34,394 nt of DNA from an uncultured Candidatus Bathyarchaeia archaeon (GCA_964650675.1 CAZYUK010000001.1:1-34394), one strand, 5' to 3'. Shown: positions 4,755-20,139, counted from the first letter of the stretch. Notes: a model not told the origin generated them from the sequence alone. Numbers and translations: made by a program.

Positions 4755-5018
4755 ATGAAGATTCTACTGTACTTCGATTGGACTGGGACCAGGAAGGAGC
4801 TGAAGGAGCATGACATCAAACTTCGGCAGTCGTGCAAGGACACCGGAGTCGAGTATAATGGGCTGTTCGGCTCGATGAACCAGAAGTGGAACTTCGTCTG
4901 GCTCTTCGACGCAAAGAGCTACGACCACTTCATGGAGATGACGCACGGGGTTCCGCGCCCAATGCAGATGACCCACTACATCACGGAGCTCCTCATACCG
5001 ATCAAGCTCCCGGAGTAG
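4755..5018 (+). CDS. hypothetical small protein (87 aa)
   Basis: Clean ORF with GGAGA-like SD 8 nt upstream and TATA-like GATAATGATATAT at about 4711. No recognisable motif. Confidence 0.45.
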   Translation: MKILLYFDWTGTRKELKEHDIKLRQSCKDTGVEYNGLFGSMNQKWNFVWLFDAKSYDHFMEMTHGVPRPMQMTHYITELLIPIKLPE

Positions 5019-7322: not shown

Positions 7323-7586
7323 ATGGCTGAAGCCTTGGTGAAGGTTGGAACCGTAGCCCATTACTTCGGGAAGATAGGGGTCGCCGTGGTCGAGGTCACC
7401 GCGCCCCTCAAGGTCGGAGACAGGATCACGGTGAGGGGGTTGAAGACGAGTCTAGACCAGACGGTCGAGTCGATGGAGGTCGACCACAAGAGCGTCACCA
7501 CCGCGAAGAAGGGGGATTCCATCGGACTGAAGGTCAACGGCTACGTCAGAGAAGGGGACGCGGTATACATATTAGCCGTCCAGTAA
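7323..7586 (+). CDS. small EF-Tu domain-II-like beta-barrel protein (87 aa)
   Basis: VGTVAHYFGKIGVAVVEVTAPLKVGDRITVRG...KGDSIGLKV...EGDAVY resembles the translation-factor domain II barrel. TATA-like CCTTTTAC lies about 27 nt upstream, which suggests a leaderless mRNA. Confidence 0.55.
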   Translation: MAEALVKVGTVAHYFGKIGVAVVEVTAPLKVGDRITVRGLKTSLDQTVESMEVDHKSVTTAKKGDSIGLKVNGYVREGDAVYILAVQ

Positions 7587-7596
7587 ACCTTTTAAA
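7585..7596 (+). promoter_or_regulatory. BRE/TATA-like box AAACCTTTTAAA for ilvB copy 1 operon
   Basis: Matches the box at 11053-11064. It lies 58 nt upstream of the conserved leader module. Confidence 0.4.
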
Positions 7597-7631
7597 CCCT
7601 GACTCCGCTCTTTCCCCTACACGCCTGTTCG

Positions 7632-7711
7632 GGGATAGACAAATGGGGTATCGTTTTGTCGAGGCCCCCGCTGAGGGGGAAGCGTAAATGGGGAATTGTT
7701 TTATTAGATAA
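7632..7711 (+). promoter_or_regulatory. conserved ilvB leader module, copy 1 (mini-ORFs 7643-7687 and 7688-7711; hairpin CCCCC 7665-7669 / GGGGG 7675-7679)
   Basis: Aligns with 11102-11180 at near-identical length: GGATAGACAAATGGGGTATCGTTTTGTCGAGGCCCCCGCTGAGGGGGAAGCGTAAATGGGGAATTGTTTTATTAGATAA. Confidence 0.6.
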
Positions 7712-7821
7712 ACCACTCAGGGCAAGGACCCGCTTCAGCGATTCATGGCTGGTAACGCCATTCAATGAAGGGTCGGTAGCTGAGGATATGCTCCGTGCTG
7801 TGAGCCGGGAGGCGACGCCGC

Positions 7822-9516
7822 ATGGTTGAGATGTCAGGGGCGGGTGCCCTCTGGACGGCTCTGAAGAAGGAGGGGGTCAGCCACGTCTTCGGGCTGCCCG
7901 GGGGCTCGGTGATCCCCCTGTGCGACGAGCTCCTGGGATTCGACCTCCGGTTCATCCTCGCCCGCCACGAGCAGGGCGCCGCCCACATGGCCGACGGCTA
8001 CGCGAGGGCGAGCGGCCGAGTAGGCGTCTGCCTCGCCACATCGGGGCCCGGCGCGACGAACCTGGTGACCGGGATCGCGACGGCGAACATGGACTCCTCC
8101 GCGGTAGTCGCCTTCACCGGGCAGGTGAATAGGGCCGTGATCGGCTCGGACGCCTTCCAGGAGGTGGACATAATCGGCTGCTCGGCTTCGGTCACGAAGT
8201 ACAATATGCAGGTGAGGAGGGCGTGTGAGATCCCCGCGGCGGTGAAGGCGGCCTTCCATATCGCGTCAACGGGCCGCAGGGGTGCCGTCCTCGTCGACCT
8301 GCCGAAGGACGTCACGATAGATGTCGAGGAGATGGTTTTCCCAGAGACCGTGCATTTCCGTGGCTACAAGGTGGAGCCAGCACCCGACCAGAGGGAGCTC
8401 GACGTAGCTGCGGCGCTGCTCGCGAAGGCGCAGAGGCCTGTGATCGTGGCCGGCGGAGGCGTCATCAACGCGGGCGCCTCGAGGCAGCTCGTCGCGCTGT
8501 CAGAGTACCTCATGGCGCCGACGGCGACCACCCTAATGGGTAAGGGAGCCTTCCCCGCCGATCACCCTCTCAGCCTAGGCATGTGCGGCATGCACGGCAC
8601 CGTGGCCGCCAACAACCTCGTACCCGAGGCGGATGTCCTTCTGATAGTCGGAGCCAGGCTCAGCGACAGGACCACCGGCGCCGTTAAGAGCTTCGCGCCG
8701 AACGCCAAGGTGATCCACGTCGACATCGATAAGACCGAGGTGGATAAGAACGTCGAGACGAGGATGAGGGTCGTCGGCGACGCCGGCCTCGCCCTCAGCG
8801 GGCTGCTGGAGCGGGTCGGGAAGCTGAGGTCCAAGGCGGGCAAGGACTCCATCTGGCATAGGAAATTGGCGGAGCTGCGTTGCGCCTCGAACGGGAAGAA
8901 CGGGAACGGTGCAAAGGAGGGCTACCTCAGGGCGCCTGATGTCATCAAAGCGCTCAGAAAGGTTCTGCCGAGGAACGCGATAGTCACCACGGAGGTGGGG
9001 CAGAACCAGATGTGGGCCGCCCTCCACTACGACGCCTATGAACCAAGAACCTTCTTCACGAGCGGCGGCCTGGGCACGATGGGCTGGGGCTTCCCCGCGG
9101 CGATAGGAGCCAAGACGGCCCGACCGGATGTGCCCGTCGTCGACATCGCAGGGGACGGGAGCTTCGGCATGACCGAGAACAGCATGGCGACGAGCGTCGA
9201 GGAGGAGATACCCGTCGTCGTCGTTGTGCTTAACAACCAGATGCTCGGCATGGTGGCGCAGTGGCAGCGTCTCTTCTACGACCACAGGTACTCCGCGGTG
9301 AATCTGAGGGGGAACCCAGACTTCATCAAGCTCGCTGAGGCGTACGGCGCGGAAGGCGTGAGGGTGGAGACCCTAGAGGGGTTCGAGGCCGCGGTCAGGA
9401 GGGCCATCGTCAGCGAGGTCTCCACGGTCATAGACGTCCCCATAGACCCGGAGGAGAACGTTTACCCCATCGTACCACCGGGGATGGGGCTCAAGGATGC
9501 GCTGCTGGAGGTGTGA
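7822..9516 (+). CDS. ilvB: acetolactate synthase (AHAS) large subunit, copy 1
   Basis: ThDP-enzyme motifs: HEQGAAHMADGYARASGRVGVCLATSGPGATNLVTG, LGMCGMHG, and the ThDP-binding GDGSFGMTENSMATSVEEEIPVVVVVLNN. Followed by the small subunit. ATG 7831 is an alternative start. Confidence 0.92.
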   Translation: MVEMSGAGALWTALKKEGVSHVFGLPGGSVIPLCDELLGFDLRFILARHEQGAAHMADGYARASGRVGVCLATSGPGATNLVTGIATANMDSSAVVAFTGQVNRAVIGSDAFQEVDIIGCSASVTKYNMQVRRACEIPAAVKAAFHIASTGRRGAVLVDLPKDVTIDVEEMVFPETVHFRGYKVEPAPDQRELDVAAALLAKAQRPVIVAGGGVINAGASRQLVALSEYLMAPTATTLMGKGAFPADHPLSLGMCGMHGTVAANNLVPEADVLLIVGARLSDRTTGAVKSFAPNAKVIHVDIDKTEVDKNVETRMRVVGDAGLALSGLLERVGKLRSKAGKDSIWHRKLAELRCASNGKNGNGAKEGYLRAPDVIKALRKVLPRNAIVTTEVGQNQMWAALHYDAYEPRTFFTSGGLGTMGWGFPAAIGAKTARPDVPVVDIAGDGSFGMTENSMATSVEEEIPVVVVVLNNQMLGMVAQWQRLFYDHRYSAVNLRGNPDFIKLAEAYGAEGVRVETLEGFEAAVRRAIVSEVSTVIDVPIDPEENVYPIVPPGMGLKDALLEV

Positions 9517-9519
9517 GGA

Positions 9520-10029
9520 ATGAGCGAGCTACACACGATAGCGTTCATAGTCGAGAACAAGCCCGGAGTCCTCTTCAACATCTCAAACATGTTCAGGAAG
9601 AAGAACTTCAACATCCACAGCATCAGCGTGGGCGCAATCCCGAACGCGGAGGTCGTCAGGATAACGATAGTGGTCCAAGCCGACGCCCGCGGCGTCTACC
9701 AGGTGGTTGAGCAGCTCGACAAGATGGTGGACGTCGTCGAGGTGAAGCGCCTTGACCCGATGAGGATCGTGAGGAGGGAGCTCGCTCTCGTGAAGCTCAC
9801 CACGGCGGACCCGTGGGCGAGGGAGGAGGCCCTCACCTGCGTCAACGACTACCACGGCCTCATCCTGAACATAGACCCGGACACCCTGATAGCTGAGGTG
9901 ACCGGGGACTCGGACGAGATAGACGCCTTCCTCGAGAAGGTGAAGCCGATAGGCATCATCGAGTTCTCGAGGACGGGCATCACTGCCCTGGAGAAGGGGC
10001 GGCTCAGGCTAGAGAGAGGTGAAACATGA
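9520..10029 (+). CDS. ilvN: acetolactate synthase small (regulatory) subunit, copy 1
   Basis: ACT-domain N-terminus [34 protein letters not shown]. At 169 aa it is a long-form small subunit. Confidence 0.9.
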
Positions 10030-11015
10030 TGGTGAAGGTGTACCACGACGAGGACATAGACGAGAAGGTCCTCAGAGGAAAGAAGGTTGCCGTCATAGGA
10101 TACGGCAGCCAGGGAAGGGCTCAGGCCCTAAACATGTACGACTCGGGTGTCGACGTCGTCGTCGGCCTCAGACCGGGCAGATCATGGGAGAAGGCGGAGG
10201 CGGACGGCCTCAAAGTGATGACCGTCATCGACGCCGCGCGGGCGGCGGACATCGTGTTGATGCTCGTCCCGGACATGGCGCAGCCCGTCGTCTATGGCGA
10301 GGAGGTGGCGCTGGCCCTCAGGAAGGGAAAGACCCTGCAGTTCGCCCATGGCTTCAACATCCACTTCGACGTGATCAAACCGCCGAAGGATGTCGATGTC
10401 ATCATGGTGGCGCCGAAGAGCCCGGGCCCGGAGATGCGCCGCCAGTACGAGGCGGGCTTCGGCGTACCTGCCCTCGTCGCCGTCCAGCAGGACGCCTCCG
10501 GGAAGGCGCTGAAGACCGCCCTTGCCATCGCGAAGGCCCTGGGATCTGGGCGAGCCGGCGTCATCGAGACCAGTTTCAAGAACGAGACGGAGAGCGACCT
10601 CTTCGGGGAGCAGGCCGTCCTATGCGGGGGCGTTGACCAGCTCATCAGGAGGGGCTTCAGGGTCCTCACGGAGGCGGGGTATCCGCCTGAGCTCGCCTAC
10701 TTCGAAGTCTGCAACGAGCTGAAGCTCATCGTCGACCTCATCTACAAGTCGGGTCTCGGCGGGATGTACAGGGCGGTCTCAGACACGGCGAAGTATGGTG
10801 GCATGATAGTTGGGCCGAAGATCGTCGACGACCGCGTCGAGGAGAACATGAGGAGGGCGCTGAAGGAGGTCCAGAGCGGCGAGTTCGCCAAGCAGTGGAT
10901 CGCGGAATACGCGGCCGGCTCAAAGGAGTTCAGGCGCCTCATGGACGAGTGCGACGCCCTCGAGATCGAGAGGGTCGGCAAGCAGGTCCGGAGGATGTCT
11001 GGGCTCGAAAAATAG
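10026..11015 (+). CDS. ilvC: ketol-acid reductoisomerase
   Basis: Rossmann motif [31 protein letters not shown], then FAHGFNIHF and [16 protein letters not shown]. Start overlaps the ilvN stop (ATGA). Confidence 0.93.
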
Positions 11016-11052
11016 CCCTCATCCGGCCGACCACTTATCAGGCTCGCCTCAC

Positions 11053-11064
11053 AAACCTTTTTAT
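11053..11064 (+). promoter_or_regulatory. BRE/TATA-like box AAACCTTTTTAT for ilvB copy 2 operon
   Basis: Paralogous to 7585-7596 and 59 nt upstream of the conserved leader module. The T5 run could also serve as an ilvC terminator. Confidence 0.4.
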
Positions 11065-11101
11065 GCGGAGTCACGGTGGTTTAGGTTACAGCCATTTAGG
11101 A

Positions 11102-11180
11102 AGGATGGATAATGGGGTATTGCTTTGTCGAGCCCCCTAGAAAGGGGGAGAGATGAATGGGGAATCGTATTCTCAGCTGA
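11102..11180 (+). promoter_or_regulatory. conserved ilvB leader module, copy 2 (mini-ORFs 11112-11156 and 11157-11180; hairpin CCCCC 11133-11137 / GGGGG 11144-11148)
   Basis: AGGATGGATAATGGGGTATTGCTTTGTCGAGCCCCCTAGAAAGGGGGAGAGATGAATGGGGAATCGTATTCTCAGCTGA aligns with 7632-7711. Confidence 0.6.
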
Positions 11181-11249
11181 CAGATTCCCGCAAGTGACCA
11201 AGGTCTCCGGATCATCCGGATTCGACGTTGATGTGCTCTGCGATGGGGG

Positions 11250-12944
11250 GTGGTTTCCATGCCTGAGATGACCGGCGCAGAGGCCTACGTGAAGGCCCTT
11301 GAGATAGAGGGCGTCGAGTACATCTTCGGCGTCACGGGGGCGGCCATAATGCCAATCTGCGACGAGCTCCTCAAGTCGAACATCCGGTATGTCGGGGGCG
11401 CACACGAGCAGGGATCCGCTCACATGGCGGACGGCTACGCCAGGGCGTCTGGGAGGGTCGGCGTCGTCCAGGCGACGAGCGGCCCGGGCGCCACAAACAT
11501 CGTCACCGGGATGGCAACGGCTCAGCTAGACTCCTCACCCGTCGTCGCCTTCACGGGACAGGTGCCAAAGGGCATGGTTGGCACGGACGCCTTCCAGGAG
11601 GTCGACATCATCGGAGTCACCGCCTCCGTGACCAAGCACAATATACAGGTGATGGAGGCGGCTGAGGTGCCACACGCCGTGAAGGCGGCGTTCTACATCG
11701 CCTCGACGGGGAGGAGGGGCGCCGTGCTCGTAGACCTGCCGAAGGACGTTCAGACCGACAAGGCCGAGATGGTCTTCCCCGAGAAGGTAGAGTTCCGCGG
11801 CTACCACCCGAACATCGAGCCGAGCCCGAACGAGATCCACTGGGCCGCTACGCTGCTCGCCAAGGCGAGGAGGCCAGTGATCATAGCGGGCGGCGGGGTC
11901 ATAGCCTCCGGGGCGTCGCAGGAGCTGGTGAGCCTCGCCGAGATGATCCAGGCGCCCGTCGCGCATAGCCTCATGGGGAAGGGCTCCATGCCGAGCGACC
12001 ATCCCCTAAGCCTCGGCCTCTGCGGCATGCATGGCAGGTACGAGGCGAATAAGATCGTGCCAGAGGCGGACGTTTTGCTCATTGTGGGCGCAAGGCTCAG
12101 CGACAGAACTACCGGATCCATCGACGGCTTCGCCCCAAACGCCAGGATAATCCACATCGACTTGGACAGAAGCGAGATAGACAAGAACGTCGATTCCATA
12201 ACCCGCGTCGTGGGAGACGCCAAGCTCGCCCTTCGCGGGATAATGGAGAAGATCGCTCTCCAGAAGATCAATGGCAATAGGGATGAGACGATCATCAAAA
12301 AGATCGAGGAGTTCCGAGCTCAAACATCTGAGCTGAGGTCGGATTCGCCTCTACCCGGCCCAGAGGTGATTAGGGCGATAAGGAGGGCGATGCCCAGGGA
12401 TAGCATAGCAGTCACAGACGTAGGCCAGCACCAGATGTGGGCAGCTCAGCACTACGACGTCTACGGGCCAGGAACATTCTTCACATCCGGCGGACTTGGC
12501 ACGATGGGGTGGGGGACGCCGGCCGCCATAGGCGCCAAAGCCGCGAGGGGAGACCTGCCTGTGCTAAACATATCCGGCGACGGCAGCTTCGCCATGACAG
12601 AGAACAACCTCGCCATAGCTGTAGACGAAGGCTTCCCGATCACTATCGTCATCTTGAACAACCATATGCTCGGGATGGTTGCCCAGTGGCAGCGCCTCTT
12701 CTACGATCACAGGTACTCCGCCGTCAACAGACCGATCTACCCGGACTTCGCCAAGTTAGCAGAGTCCTACGGCGCTGAAGGCGTCTACGTAGACTCGATC
12801 CAGGGACTCGAGGCGGCGCTCAGAAGGGCAGTGGGAAGCGACTACACCACAGTCATAGACGTCCCCATAGACCCTGAGGAGAACGTGTACCCAATGGTCC
12901 CGCCCGGCATGGGGCTCAAGGACATCCTGCTCGGAGATGACTGA
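11250..12944 (+). CDS. ilvB: acetolactate synthase (AHAS) large subunit, copy 2
   Basis: Colinear with copy 1 across the full length, with the same ThDP motifs and a near-identical C-terminus VIDVPIDPEENVYPMVPPGMGLKD. The start is GTG 11250; ATG 11259, preceded by GGTGG, is equally plausible. Confidence 0.9.
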   Translation: MVSMPEMTGAEAYVKALEIEGVEYIFGVTGAAIMPICDELLKSNIRYVGGAHEQGSAHMADGYARASGRVGVVQATSGPGATNIVTGMATAQLDSSPVVAFTGQVPKGMVGTDAFQEVDIIGVTASVTKHNIQVMEAAEVPHAVKAAFYIASTGRRGAVLVDLPKDVQTDKAEMVFPEKVEFRGYHPNIEPSPNEIHWAATLLAKARRPVIIAGGGVIASGASQELVSLAEMIQAPVAHSLMGKGSMPSDHPLSLGLCGMHGRYEANKIVPEADVLLIVGARLSDRTTGSIDGFAPNARIIHIDLDRSEIDKNVDSITRVVGDAKLALRGIMEKIALQKINGNRDETIIKKIEEFRAQTSELRSDSPLPGPEVIRAIRRAMPRDSIAVTDVGQHQMWAAQHYDVYGPGTFFTSGGLGTMGWGTPAAIGAKAARGDLPVLNISGDGSFAMTENNLAIAVDEGFPITIVILNNHMLGMVAQWQRLFYDHRYSAVNRPIYPDFAKLAESYGAEGVYVDSIQGLEAALRRAVGSDYTTVIDVPIDPEENVYPMVPPGMGLKDILLGDD

Positions 12945-13440
12945 GATGACGCTTCAGGTGGTATCCTTCCTCGTAGAGAACAAGCCGGGCGTCCTCTTCA
13001 AGGTCTCCAACCTCTTCAGGCGCCGCGGCTACAACATCCAGGGGATAACCGTGGGCACGATAGAGGGTACAGGCCTCAGCCGCATGACGGTCACGGTCGA
13101 GGCGGACAGCCGCGTCCTCAACCAGATACTTGAGCAGCTCGACAAGATGGTGGAGGTTGTAAAGGTCAAGAGGCTCGATCCCATCCGCGCCGTGAGCAGG
13201 GAGCTCCTCCTCGTGAAGCTGAGGACGGCGGACCCCATGGCGAGGCAGGAGGTCCTTGGCTACATCAACGCCTACCACGGCCTCATCCTCGATGTCGAGC
13301 CGGACATTCTGATAGCCGAGGTTACGGGGGCACCTGAGGAGATAGATGAGTTTCTCAGGGACATCAGGCCCATAGGCGTCGAGGAGATGAGCCGCACAGG
13401 CGCTACCGCCCTCGAGAGAGGAACGATGAAACTCGCCTGA
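12937..13440 (+). CDS. ilvN: acetolactate synthase small (regulatory) subunit, copy 2
   Basis: [33 protein letters not shown] is colinear with copy 1. Alternative start ATG 12946. Confidence 0.88.
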   Translation: MTEMTLQVVSFLVENKPGVLFKVSNLFRRRGYNIQGITVGTIEGTGLSRMTVTVEADSRVLNQILEQLDKMVEVVKVKRLDPIRAVSRELLLVKLRTADPMARQEVLGYINAYHGLILDVEPDILIAEVTGAPEEIDEFLRDIRPIGVEEMSRTGATALERGTMKLA

Positions 13441-17310: not shown

Positions 17311-20139
17311 ATGGAGAGTAAACAGTGGCACGCGAAAAGCGTTGAAGATACGCTGAGGGACCTTAACGCCAACGAGAACGGCTTGACCTCGGAAGAGGTA
17401 GAGGCTAGGAGGAAGACCTACGGCTATAACGAGTTGAAGGAGAAGAAGCGGAGAACCGCGCTGCAGATGTTCCTCGGGGAATTCAAGGACATCTTCATCC
17501 TCCTGCTCCTCGCCGCCACGGTGTTATCCGCCGGAATAGGATATTACGAATCTATAGGGACGGGGAAGGGTTTCCTCGAGACCTACACGGATACCATAAC
17601 AATAACGATCATAGTTGTCCTAGTCGCGGTATCCGGTTTCGTCCAAGAGTACCGGGCTGAGAAGGCGATCGAGGCCTTGAAGAAGCTGACGGCGCCAAAG
17701 GCACGCGTCATACGGGACGGCAGGGAGACGATGATACCTGCCAGGGAGGTCGTGCCAGGTGACATGTTGGTCCTCGAGGCCGGTGACACAGTCCCCGCTG
17801 ATGCACGAGTCTTACAGGCTATCGAGTTGAAATCGGATGAGGCCATCCTGACCGGCGAATCCACGCCGGTGAACAAGTCCTTGGATATCGTTAGCCCCGA
17901 CGCGGCCGTCGCCGAGAGGAAAGACATGCTCTTCATGGCAACCCACACGATCTATGGCAGGGGCAAGGCCATCGTCACCTCCATCGGGATGGGCACGGAG
18001 TTCGGGAGAATCGCGGAACTTGTGCAGGAAGCTGAGGAGGAGGAGACCCCGCTTCAGAGGAAGCTGGACAGGTTTGCTAAAAAAATAGCCTACGGGGTAA
18101 TTGCTCTCGCGGCGGTTATTTTCGTCCTCGAACTCTTCGCTGAAGGATTAGGAATAAAGGCGTTTATCGACGCCTTCATGATTTCGATATCCCTGGCCAT
18201 ATCGGTCGTGCCCGAAGGGCTACCAGCGATAGTGACCATCACACTCGCCCTAGGGGCACGGGAGTTTGCGAGACGCCACGCCATCATAAGAAAATTATCT
18301 TCCACCGAGAGCCTTGGAGCCACCACCGTAATCTGTTCCGATAAGACAGGGACCTTAACTAAAGGGGAAATGACTGTACGACGAATATACGATGGGAAAT
18401 TCGTCGATGTCACCGGAGTAGGCTACGAGCCCAAAGGCGAGTTCAAGGTAGGTAACGAACCCATTAACCCCCTAGAAACCCCTGACCTTTCCCTGACGCT
18501 CACCATAGGCAGCCTATGCAATAATGCTAAACTGGAAAAGGACAATGGTAGCTGGCATATCATCGGTGACCCAACGGAGGGGGCCTTAATCGTCACCGCG
18601 GTCAAGGCCGGATTGGAATTAGGCGAACTCGAGAAACGGTATCCCCGCATCGGCGAAATTCCCTTTACCTCCGAAAAGAAACGGATGACCACGATCCATT
18701 CGAGTTCGGACGGAGGCAAAATCGCCTTCATGAAGGGGGCTCCGGAAATCGTTCTAGAGCTTTCCACCAACATCTTCGAGAATGGCGAAGAGAGGCAACT
18801 GACCGGATCTAAACGTGGGGAGCTCCTCGATATCAACGAGAAGTTGGCGTCCGAAGCCCTTCGTCTTCTCGGGATGGCCTACAAGAAACTGCCGAGCGGT
18901 CTAAAAGAATTCCGGGAGGAAAACATCGAGAAGGGCATGGTCTTCGTCGGTTTGGAGGGTATGATCGATCCGCCTCGAGAGGAGGCGATAGAGGCGAATA
19001 GAAAGTGTGAGCAGGCCGGAATAAAGACGGTCATGATCACTGGAGACCATAAACTAACCGCCACAGCCGTCGCCAAGGAAATTGGCATGATGAAGGAAGA
19101 CAGCACAGTCCTGACCGGTGTCGAGTTAGACCAGATGAGCGATGAGGAGTTTCAGGAGAAGGTGGAGAAGGTAGCTGTGTACGCACGTGTGTCGCCTGAA
19201 CACAAACTGCGCATAGTGGGGGCGTGGAAGAAGAGGGGGCAGATCGTCGCGATGACCGGCGACGGGGTGAACGACGCCCCGGCCGTCAAGAGCGCCGACA
19301 TAGGCATATCCATGGGCATCTCCGGCACAGACGTGACGCGGGAGGCCTCGGACATGGTTTTGACGGATGACAACTTCGCCACGATCGTCAGGGCGGTCGA
19401 GGAGGGCAGGGTCATCTACGACAACATCCGCAAATATGCGCGATTCCTCATATCATGCAACTTCGACGAGGTCCTCGTCATCGGCTCGTTCGCGCTGTTG
19501 GCGGGGCTCGCCGGGGCCGGAGGGGAGGTGCTCTTCCCCGTGCCCCTGCTGCCGGCAATGCTGCTATGGATAAACTTGGTCACGGACGGCGCGCCCGCCG
19601 TTTCCCTCGCACTCGACCCTCCGGAGGAGGATGTGATGAAACGCCGTCCGCGCAAATCCGGAGAGGGCATACTGCACGGCATGACCGCATTCATAATAGT
19701 ATCGTTTATTCTGCAGTCTGCAGGTACAATACTCCTGTTCGCCTTAAATTACTACATATTCCCGACTCATCCCTGGGGCTGGCCGAACGGGCCATTCATT
19801 GAGGCAAATCGGATACTCACCTTAGACGAAGCCAGGACAACCGCCTTCGTCCAGGCAACCCTGTTCGAGCTGTTCGTCGTCTGGAACTGTCGATCGGAGA
19901 AACGCAGTGTTTGGAGGATGGGGCGGGACGCCTTCAAAAACAAATGGTTCGTCATAGCCGAAATTGTGTCCATAGGCACCACCTTGGCTATACCCTACAT
20001 CCCGATAACTGCGTCCATGTTCCACCTAGTTCCACTAACCTCACTCGATCTAGCGCAGGTCATATTGGTGGCAAGCTGGGCCCTGTTCTTCGTGCTTCCG
20101 GAGAATCTCATGGACAAGAAGATTTGGCGCTGGGAATAG
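17311..20139 (+). CDS. P-type cation-transporting ATPase, P2A (Ca2+-ATPase-like)
   Basis: CSDKTGTLT, TGDHKLTA and TGDGVNDAPAVK. TM4 has VVPEGLPAIVT and TM6 has WINLVTDGAPAVSLALDPPEEDVM, as in SERCA-type pumps. The ORF opens at GTG 17302; ATG 17311 is preferred. Confidence 0.88.
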   Translation: MESKQWHAKSVEDTLRDLNANENGLTSEEVEARRKTYGYNELKEKKRRTALQMFLGEFKDIFILLLLAATVLSAGIGYYESIGTGKGFLETYTDTITITIIVVLVAVSGFVQEYRAEKAIEALKKLTAPKARVIRDGRETMIPAREVVPGDMLVLEAGDTVPADARVLQAIELKSDEAILTGESTPVNKSLDIVSPDAAVAERKDMLFMATHTIYGRGKAIVTSIGMGTEFGRIAELVQEAEEEETPLQRKLDRFAKKIAYGVIALAAVIFVLELFAEGLGIKAFIDAFMISISLAISVVPEGLPAIVTITLALGAREFARRHAIIRKLSSTESLGATTVICSDKTGTLTKGEMTVRRIYDGKFVDVTGVGYEPKGEFKVGNEPINPLETPDLSLTLTIGSLCNNAKLEKDNGSWHIIGDPTEGALIVTAVKAGLELGELEKRYPRIGEIPFTSEKKRMTTIHSSSDGGKIAFMKGAPEIVLELSTNIFENGEERQLTGSKRGELLDINEKLASEALRLLGMAYKKLPSGLKEFREENIEKGMVFVGLEGMIDPPREEAIEANRKCEQAGIKTVMITGDHKLTATAVAKEIGMMKEDSTVLTGVELDQMSDEEFQEKVEKVAVYARVSPEHKLRIVGAWKKRGQIVAMTGDGVNDAPAVKSADIGISMGISGTDVTREASDMVLTDDNFATIVRAVEEGRVIYDNIRKYARFLISCNFDEVLVIGSFALLAGLAGAGGEVLFPVPLLPAMLLWINLVTDGAPAVSLALDPPEEDVMKRRPRKSGEGILHGMTAFIIVSFILQSAGTILLFALNYYIFPTHPWGWPNGPFIEANRILTLDEARTTAFVQATLFELFVVWNCRSEKRSVWRMGRDAFKNKWFVIAEIVSIGTTLAIPYIPITASMFHLVPLTSLDLAQVILVASWALFFVLPENLMDKKIWRWE

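Follow-up and report, generated by a model that had tools for sequence, protein, structure and literature searches.

Leaders of branched-chain amino acid operons in Bathyarchaeia as candidate +1-frameshift sensors of aminoacyl-tRNA

In an uncultured Candidatus Bathyarchaeia archaeon, two operons that each begin with a large-subunit gene of AHAS, the enzyme common to all three branched-chain pathways, are preceded by leaders in which one 18-nt motif occurs twice. Are these repeats binding sites, as a reading made from the sequence alone had suggested, or are they translated? We addressed this question in the window, that is, the whole 34,394-nt stretch of DNA that was analysed, in the assembly to which it belongs and in related genomes. 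The upstream operon, ilvB1-ilvN1-ilvC, occupies 7822-11015 behind leader 1 (7587..7829). The downstream operon, ilvB2-ilvN2, spans 11259..13440, with ilvB2 running from ATG 11259 or 11268 to 12944 and ilvN2 lying at 12937-13440; all features lie on the plus strand. Both large subunits exceed the cut-off of NCBIfam TIGR00118 (699.9 bits against 538 for ilvB2, which Pfam also identifies).

Inspection of the sequence bore out the four copies of the motif, letter for letter, as ATGGGGTATCGTTTTGTC at 7643, ATGGGGAATTGTTTTATT at 7688, ATGGGGTATTGCTTTGTC at 11112 and ATGGGGAATCGTATTCTC at 11157, together with their spacing of exactly 45 nt within each of the two leaders. With at most one mismatch, ATGGGGWATYGYWTT matched four times in the window, against 0.01 matches expected from 100 dinucleotide shuffles, and five times in the entire 1.83-Mb assembly. 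The fifth copy, at C19:8873, lies about 150 nt upstream of valS, identified as valine-tRNA ligase by NCBIfam NF009687 (947.6 bits against a cut-off of 738). The motif is not a product of base composition, because the codons that it uses are rare in this genome: TTT accounts for 7% of the codons for Phe, TAT for 17% of those for Tyr, ATT for 6% of those for Ile, and CGY for 19% of those for Arg. It was not found in the IleRS and LeuRS leaders of the same genome. The IleRS gene (G000 C2, ~19000-19200, minus strand) has a leader of about 120 nt past its TATA box, which holds a second TATA-like box (CATTTTTAAGG) and a small ORF, and the leader of the LeuRS gene (C30) is short and plain.

Beyond this genome, the motif with one mismatch was present in 34 of 41 relatives, with a reversed-pattern control that gave nearly zero matches. 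The exact degenerate pattern occurred in 178 of 401 genomes of the class, against about 20 control matches overall; by family, it was found in 69/70 genomes of the family to which the window belongs and in 62/104 and 18/25 genomes of two other large families. Public contigs with matches, complete genomes among them, are nearly all labelled Candidatus Bathyarchaeota or Bathyarchaeia. A MAG labelled Candidatus Krumholzibacteriaceae bacterium has two contigs with a Bathyarchaeia-type CimA-like site of the kind described below (DATKWN010000127.1 and DATKWN010000001.1; L159 and L221), probably as a result of mis-binning. Copies with ACC, AGC, GGC, TAC, TAT, TTT or TGC as the sixth codon of the motif were set aside as chance matches; none of them has TATA and SD elements upstream or is fused to a gene, and their +1 frames contain stops.

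Leader 2 begins with a BRE/TATA-like box, AAACCTTTTTATGC, at 11053..11066; in the leaders of relatives, similar boxes (ctttttat or cttttata) precede the ATG of the mini-ORF by 40-55 nt. Transcription of leader 2 would start near 11088. An SD-like element, GGAAGGATGG, at 11099..11108 precedes mini-ORF 1 (11112..11156), which encodes MGYCFVEPPRKGER in 14 codons and stops at TGA 11154. This SD reads GGAGGATGGAAC-ATG in 14 of 16 same-genus leaders, and the 16S 3' end in same-genus genomes is ...GGATCACCTCCT. Mini-ORF 1 includes an SD-like GGGGU at 11114-11118 and a putative shift site, UUU-GUC, at 11124-11129, whose second triplet is the candidate sensor, codon 6 (Val, 11127-11129). Four nucleotides past this codon begins the hairpin CCCCCT-AGAA-AGGGGG (11133..11148), whose 3' arm, with the next bases (GGGGGAGAG), forms the SD of mini-ORF 2. 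The latter (MGNRILS, stop TGA; 11157..11180) follows immediately after the stop of mini-ORF 1 and has a putative shift site of its own, AUU-CUC, at 11169-11174, with codon 6 (Leu, 11172-11174) as sensor. A helix between GGGAATC (11160-11166) and GATTCCC (11183-11189), obtained both with RNAalifold on 16 ilvB2-type leaders and in a single-sequence fold, encloses the shift site of this second unit (11160..11189).

The +1 frame of both units is a common path, 11128..11271, that is free of stops until TGA 11269-11271. This TGA overlaps ATG 11268 (as ATGA) and lies 10 nt after ATG 11259. Within the path, the hairpin TCCGGA-TCA-TCCGGA that had been pointed out earlier was confirmed at 11206..11220; an alignment read by eye has a hairpin of the form GGATC-NNN-GATCC, with compensatory variants, at this position in 13-14 of 16 same-genus leaders. 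Leader 1 is built alike, with a TATA box near 7587-7598, mini-ORF 1 at 7643-7687 (codon 6 GTC, Val), mini-ORF 2 at 7688-7711 (codon 6 ATT, Ile) and a +1 path that ends at TGA 7827-7829, overlapping the ilvB1 start (ATG at 7822). The window thus pairs Val with Ile in leader 1 and Val with Leu in leader 2. Rfam returned tRNA only, and no match to either leader, when the whole window was searched at gathering thresholds and 7500-11400 at E-values up to 10.

The anatomy of the unit was read from 83 loci of 36 relatives and the three leaders of the window's own genome, 129 units in all. A TATA-like box and an SD-like element (GGAGGATGG, GAGGG or GTGAT) precede every unit. The start codon is ATG in 120 units and GTG in 9, and the consensus is ATG GGG UAU YGY UUU NNY, where most Leu units have AAU in place of UAU. 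In frame 0 a stop is reached at nt 18-52; in tandem leaders, this stop abuts the next ATG or lies 3 nt away from it. For this reason the spacing of tandem units across relatives, where one genome has three consecutive units, is 45 nt or sometimes 42 nt, both multiples of three. The earlier view that nucleotides rather than the peptide are conserved was upheld: since YGY alternates between Arg and Cys, the constraint is on RNA and not on the peptide, and TAT likewise alternates with AAT. The observation that the mini-peptides are not enriched in Ile, Leu and Val codons stood in part. There are indeed no runs of such codons, and we agree that this is no classical multi-codon ilv attenuator; what had been missed is that position 6 of every unit, and one such codon per unit, is Val, Ile or Leu.

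The identity of codon 6 matches the downstream gene across the 36 relatives and in every gene class. ValRS leaders have GTC or GTT (Val) in 14/14 cases. Leaders of LeuA/CimA-family synthases (TIGR02090, above cut-off) have ATT or ATC (Ile) in 12/12, and ATY also occurs in 27 further synthase loci from ten families and in 80/80 of a still wider set, for which ATY was part of the search pattern. For a threonine-dehydratase-like PLP enzyme that scores just below the NCBIfam cut-off, the leaders have two units, ATC then ATT, in 6/6. Those of AHAS, finally, combine codons as [GTC, CTY], [ATC, ATT], [GTC, ATT] or [GTC, CTC, ATT]. In unit 1 of leader 1 (7658-7660) the window has GTC (Val), against ATC (Ile) in the closest relative (G004) and most of the genus; a single-base change has apparently reprogrammed the sensor of the ilvB1-ilvN1-ilvC operon.

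The triplet before codon 6, which would occupy the P site, follows a rule of its own, being TTT before G or A and ATT before C in 127 of 129 units; accordingly, AUU is the P-site codon in 16/17 Leu units. Upon a slip by one base, UUU-G would re-pair as UUG and UUU-A as UUA, each keeping two of three pairs with tRNA-Phe, and AUU-C as UUC. The use of AUU before C can be understood as avoidance, because UUU-C would give a perfectly cognate UUC. The GGGGU that lies five nucleotides before the P-site codon has the potential for 5 bp with the anti-SD of same-genus 16S rRNA (...CACCUCCU-3'). Among the Val and Leu codons of the genome, GUC and CUC are the most frequent, and they should therefore be slow only when the amino acid in question is scarce.

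We counted stops from codon 6 to the first possible start of the main ORF in 79 leaders and found at least one stop in frame 0 of 79/79 and in frame +2 of 78/79 leaders, against 2/79 for frame +1. One of the two exceptions has its stop 4 nt before the ATG; in the other (G012) the stop blocks unit 1 only, and the path from unit 2 is open. Among 38 non-redundant leaders (less than 15% of 8-mers in common), 37 are open in +1, with a joint shuffle probability of ~1e-38; this value and the counts overstate independence, as the leaders are related. The asymmetry between frames is plain. An explanation of the variable nt 7, 10 and 13 of the motif by coding in the +1 frame already at that point (WGIAL) was considered and dropped, because in several leaders a stop in +1 stands directly upstream, and because nt 12 is variable as well.

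The +1 path ends on the main start, which its stop overlaps or abuts. At ilvB starts the junction takes the form ggagg-N9-ATGGTTGAgATG or ggagg..ATGCCTGAGATGA, according to ilvB type, and at the start of the threonine-dehydratase-like gene TTGGCTGA; at valS the +1 stop is part of ATGA or lies 11-23 nt inside the gene. In the dehydratase-like (ilvA-type) leaders a TGA stands directly before the path, and several paths have no ATG, GTG or TTG at all. Many +1 paths are thus closed to ordinary initiation, given the TGA just before them and the absence of start codons within. In a genome of another family, the locus L102 (G025:C43, reverse strand, 1886) has ilvB directly downstream of a CimA-like gene with a putative frameshift site. 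This ilvB has its own single Ile unit with a hairpin and a +1 stop, TAG, that overlaps ATGGTTAGGATG; the geometry of the junction is that of the window.

The strongest case for reading in +1 comes from the CimA-like gene, in which the mini-ORF is joined to the enzyme itself. A collection-wide pattern that left the gap free (22-52 nt, any frame) matched at least 120 species genomes, with complete genomes among the matches, and 80 loci were read. In all 80 Bathyarchaeia species so read, the catalytic motif of the N-terminus, DTTLRDGEQ, is encoded in +1 relative to the mini-ORF, at distances of 46, 49, 52, 55 or 58 nt. Frame +1 has no stop in any of the 80 loci, and frame 0 ends at nt 18-48. Canonical in-frame starts occur between the ATG and DTTLRDGEQ in 7/80 and upstream of the ATG in 21/80, which leaves at least 52/80 with none. 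In a family that lacks the motif, the homolog has an SD, an ATG and ten codons before FDTTLRDGEQ, a normal start. NCBIfam profiles do not separate CimA from LeuA for the fused gene, and its probable identity as CimA rather than LeuA is based on codon 6, which is Ile, and on the occurrence of another paralog.

No frameshift-type CimA-like gene was found in the 88%-complete assembly that contains the window; C315, the one CimA/LeuA homolog of this assembly, is a paralog that starts normally. We found no real CimA/LeuA homolog in four other families without the motif (f26, f29, f12 and f27), represented by one genome each (G079, G103, G040 and G089, 92-99% complete), which suggests auxotrophy for branched-chain amino acids in these lineages.

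We propose that leader 2 (11053-11271) is a translated sensor of aminoacyl-tRNA with two modules, in which a hungry codon triggers a +1 frameshift that couples the ribosome to the main gene; we put the probability of this reading at about 0.7. Ribosomes would initiate at ATG 11112, decode MGYCF and wait, with the P site occupied by UUU (Phe, 11124-11126), until Val-tRNA arrives at GUC 11127-11129. With Val-tRNA present, they would read mini-ORF 1 through to TGA 11154 and begin again at the adjoining ATG 11157, where mini-ORF 2 would apply a second test, for Leu-tRNA at CUC 11172-11174 with AUU 11169-11171 in the P site. At a hungry A site the peptidyl-tRNA would instead re-pair one base downstream (UUU-G to UUG, AUU-C to UUC), and the shifted ribosome would follow the open +1 frame, which both units have in common because they are 45 nt apart, to TGA 11269-11271 on top of the ilvB2 start. 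From there ribosomes would be handed to ilvB2-ilvN2 by termination-reinitiation, which the position of this TGA, overlapping one candidate start and 10 nt after the other, would favour. A translated leader may in addition shield the transcript from termination. Output of ilvB2-ilvN2 would then rise as the charging of valine or leucine tRNA falls.

This proposal builds on what comparison of the sequences has established, namely the modules, the match of codon 6 to the gene, the selectively open +1 frame and the end of that frame at the main start. From these we infer that the shift takes place, that starvation raises it, an induction suggested by the match between codon 6 and gene, and how ilvB is activated. 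We know of no archaeon in which +1 frameshifting has been demonstrated. With some reserve, we also favour a wider reading, to be taken as one joint statement, in which Bathyarchaeia use a modular switch made of a launch pad, AUG GGG UAU YGY UUU, and one A-site sense codon, such that scarcity of the aminoacyl-tRNA would cause a +1 frameshift and turn on the matching gene. In this scheme, the ancestral form may be the CimA-like fusion, which occurs in many families of the class, and one family would have copied the module to ilvB, where tandem units would act as an OR gate, and to valS and ilvA.

Predicted RNA structure differs between types of unit. Non-terminal and valS units have a GC-rich hairpin that begins 3-6 nt after codon 6, with a mean MFE over the 27-nt segment of -10.8 kcal/mol (z -2.9) and -11.1 kcal/mol (z -2.3), respectively. 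Its 5' arm exists in 22 distinct versions across these units, which indicates covariation. The hairpin was not found in terminal units (-2.0 kcal/mol) or CimA-type units (-3.0 kcal/mol), with z near 0 for both, and it is therefore not required for the shift itself. The 3' arm runs into the SD of the following unit, and the hairpin may therefore gate reinitiation. RNAalifold on three leader classes gave only this hairpin and local helices; neither these alignments nor single folds of both window leaders contained a conserved U-tract terminator, mutually exclusive hairpins or a conserved helix that masks the main SD. In the single fold, the G-rich SD of ilvB2 is partly paired (P unpaired 0.21). 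Main ORFs have a good SD of their own (GGAGG), and their expression may not depend wholly on the shift.

Could the leaders work in another way? Conservation at the nucleotide level (YGY), fixed spacing and two sites per leader are what one would expect of paired operators for an Lrp-type regulator or of sites for an RNA-binding protein, and it was in these terms that the sequence-only reading had cast them. The motif, however, is asymmetric, without dyad symmetry, and always lies on the sense strand, at least 20-30 nt downstream of the TATA box. Its spacing of 45 or 42 nt equals the mini-ORF with its stop, a multiple of 3, and one triplet varies with gene function. Since the open +1 frame and the fused CimA-like genes would also be left unaccounted for, we regard such sites as extremely improbable, and a trans-acting factor that assists the shift as possible. 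Nearly negligible is a T-box-like RNA in which uncharged tRNA would pair with the variable triplet as specifier codon. A triplet that fits the amino acid of the gene, in a conserved context and usually followed by a purine, would suit such an RNA; yet Rfam gave no match even at E-values up to 10, a unit has just 45 nt and no acceptor-binding bulge, and the element comes with a start codon, an SD and an in-frame stop. The reading-frame evidence would not be explained by a T-box either.

Three further alternatives accept that the leader is translated. A pause at codon 6 might remodel the RNA and thereby relieve termination or SD masking with no change of frame, the parts involved being the hairpin after codon 6 and, in valS, UUUGUCC / GGACAAG / GUCCGCG. 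The covarying hairpins of non-terminal and valS units, possible alternative pairings in valS leaders and a single-codon sensor equipped with SD and start codon all agree with attenuation by stalling. We nevertheless consider it distinctly unlikely: it explains neither why only +1 is free of stops up to the main start, nor why the +1 stop sits on the start codon, nor how CimA-like genes without a start codon come to be fused in +1, and there is no conserved terminator-like U-tract after the hairpins, which terminal and CimA-type units lack altogether. Direct initiation in +1 at a non-canonical codon (UUG at the shift site of Val units, or AUY at nt 8-10), with the AUG mini-ORF as a competing decoy, is conceivable for Val units alone, where UUG lies 6 nt past the SD-like GGGGU. 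Ile and Leu units have UUA or UUC there, and AUY at nt 8-10 leaves a gap of 1 nt to GGGG and of 14-19 nt to the upstream SD. As the match of codon 6 to the gene, the conserved early 0-frame stop and an AUG or GUG exactly five codons upstream in all 129 units (120 ATG and 9 GTG) would remain unexplained, we judge initiation of this kind very improbable. The +1 shift might, finally, be real but constitutive, setting a low translation rate by a fixed ratio with no sensing of aminoacyl-tRNA; what the frame evidence proves is reading of the +1 frame, and regulation of the shift does not follow from it. This, too, is unlikely, given that codon 6 follows the amino acid of the gene in every class and that tandem units with different codons precede the shared AHAS, two features for which a fixed-ratio device has no need.

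The regulated +1 shift that we prefer resembles several known systems in part. The bacterial prfB gene for release factor 2 is autoregulated through a +1 programmed frameshift site, AGG GGG UAU CUU UGA C. There as here, decoding speed would report the abundance of the regulated function, an SD-like G-run and then UAU lie upstream of the shift site, and the product, in the case of the CimA-like gene, could be obtained only after the shift. In contrast to prfB, where RF2 reads a UGA stop in the A site, the putative A-site codon here is a sense codon (GTY, ATY or CTY) for an aminoacyl-tRNA, and the SD-like element is separated from the P-site codon by 5 nt rather than 3 nt. The event would also take place at codons 5/6 of a separate mini-ORF, in modular tandem units and in an archaeon; the +1 path of ilvB, valS and ilvA ends, unfused, at the main start; and the genes concerned are those of AHAS, ValRS, a CimA-like synthase and a threonine-dehydratase-like enzyme instead of RF2. 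We regard the logic proposed for the leaders as analogous to that of prfB-type sites and the leaders as not a member of this class.

Hungry-codon frameshifting was reportedly described by Gallant and Lindsley as a laboratory phenomenon on E. coli reporters, and the +1 shift of yeast Ty1 at CUU-AGG-C relies on a constitutively rare tRNA. Common to both and to the mechanism proposed here is a vacant A site under limiting aminoacyl-tRNA, at which the P-site tRNA slips by +1. No natural hungry-codon frameshifting has been known to yield a starvation-specific product (Atkins et al. 2016, PMC5009743). Like the leaders of E. coli ilvBN and ilvGMEDA and the uORF of Corynebacterium ilvB (PMC10272879), the leaders studied here would sense charged tRNA at Val, Ile or Leu codons of a translated leader ORF. 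They differ from such leader-peptide attenuators in having one sensor codon per unit rather than runs, in the absence of a detectable terminator/antiterminator pair, and in a read-out that would consist in a change of frame and not in stall-driven RNA remodelling. Among archaea, the -1 shift in fucA1 of Saccharolobus solfataricus was the only frameshift reported up to 2021 (PMC8211752). It, too, is an archaeal programmed frameshift needed for a full-length enzyme, but it is a -1 shift on the heptamer A-AAA-AAT with no known regulatory logic. The literature that we searched contained nothing relevant on frameshifting in Bathyarchaeota or tied to branched-chain amino acid genes, and we found in it no precedent or counterpart for control of the type described.

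If the proposal is true, it would fill a gap in the recoding literature with a natural use of hungry-codon frameshifting, and would provide the first natural amino-acid-sensing frameshift, the first +1 programmed frameshift in Archaea and the first described archaeal counterpart of bacterial attenuation and T-box control of amino-acid genes. It would also mean that gene callers mis-start or truncate the CimA-like gene across Bathyarchaeia, and that a frameshift-aware model is needed for annotation and for metabolic reconstructions of how this lineage, abundant in sediments, makes isoleucine. That a single codon would act as sensor suggests a simple, reprogrammable translational sensor for synthetic biology.

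Two further features deserve mention. The valS leaders (G000 C19:8950-8970, L001 ~4951-4971, and relatives) have a conserved GCGGACA and, behind it, a TATA-like box with the sequence GGTTTTAAGG, GATTATAAGC or AATATAAGC, some 60-70 nt upstream of where valS starts. An additional promoter at this point could provide basal expression of the essential synthetase independently of the frameshift leader. The genome (G000) also harbours a second repeat family of about 45 nt, without a match in Rfam, in which GTGC-AAAAAA-N-GTAGGGGGGTA(T/C)C is followed by a hairpin (for example, CTCTGAATGG...CCATTCGGA). Some of its copies have GGGGTATCGTTT in common with the frameshift motif. A binding site common to both through GGGGTATCG(TTT) was considered and rejected; other copies read GGGGGTACC, and the overlap is therefore probably due to chance. 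The repeats of this second family, often in tandem about 160 nt apart, lie on C60 (three copies), on C71, C104, C114 and C231 (two each), on C49, C66 and C150, and in loci L290-L294.
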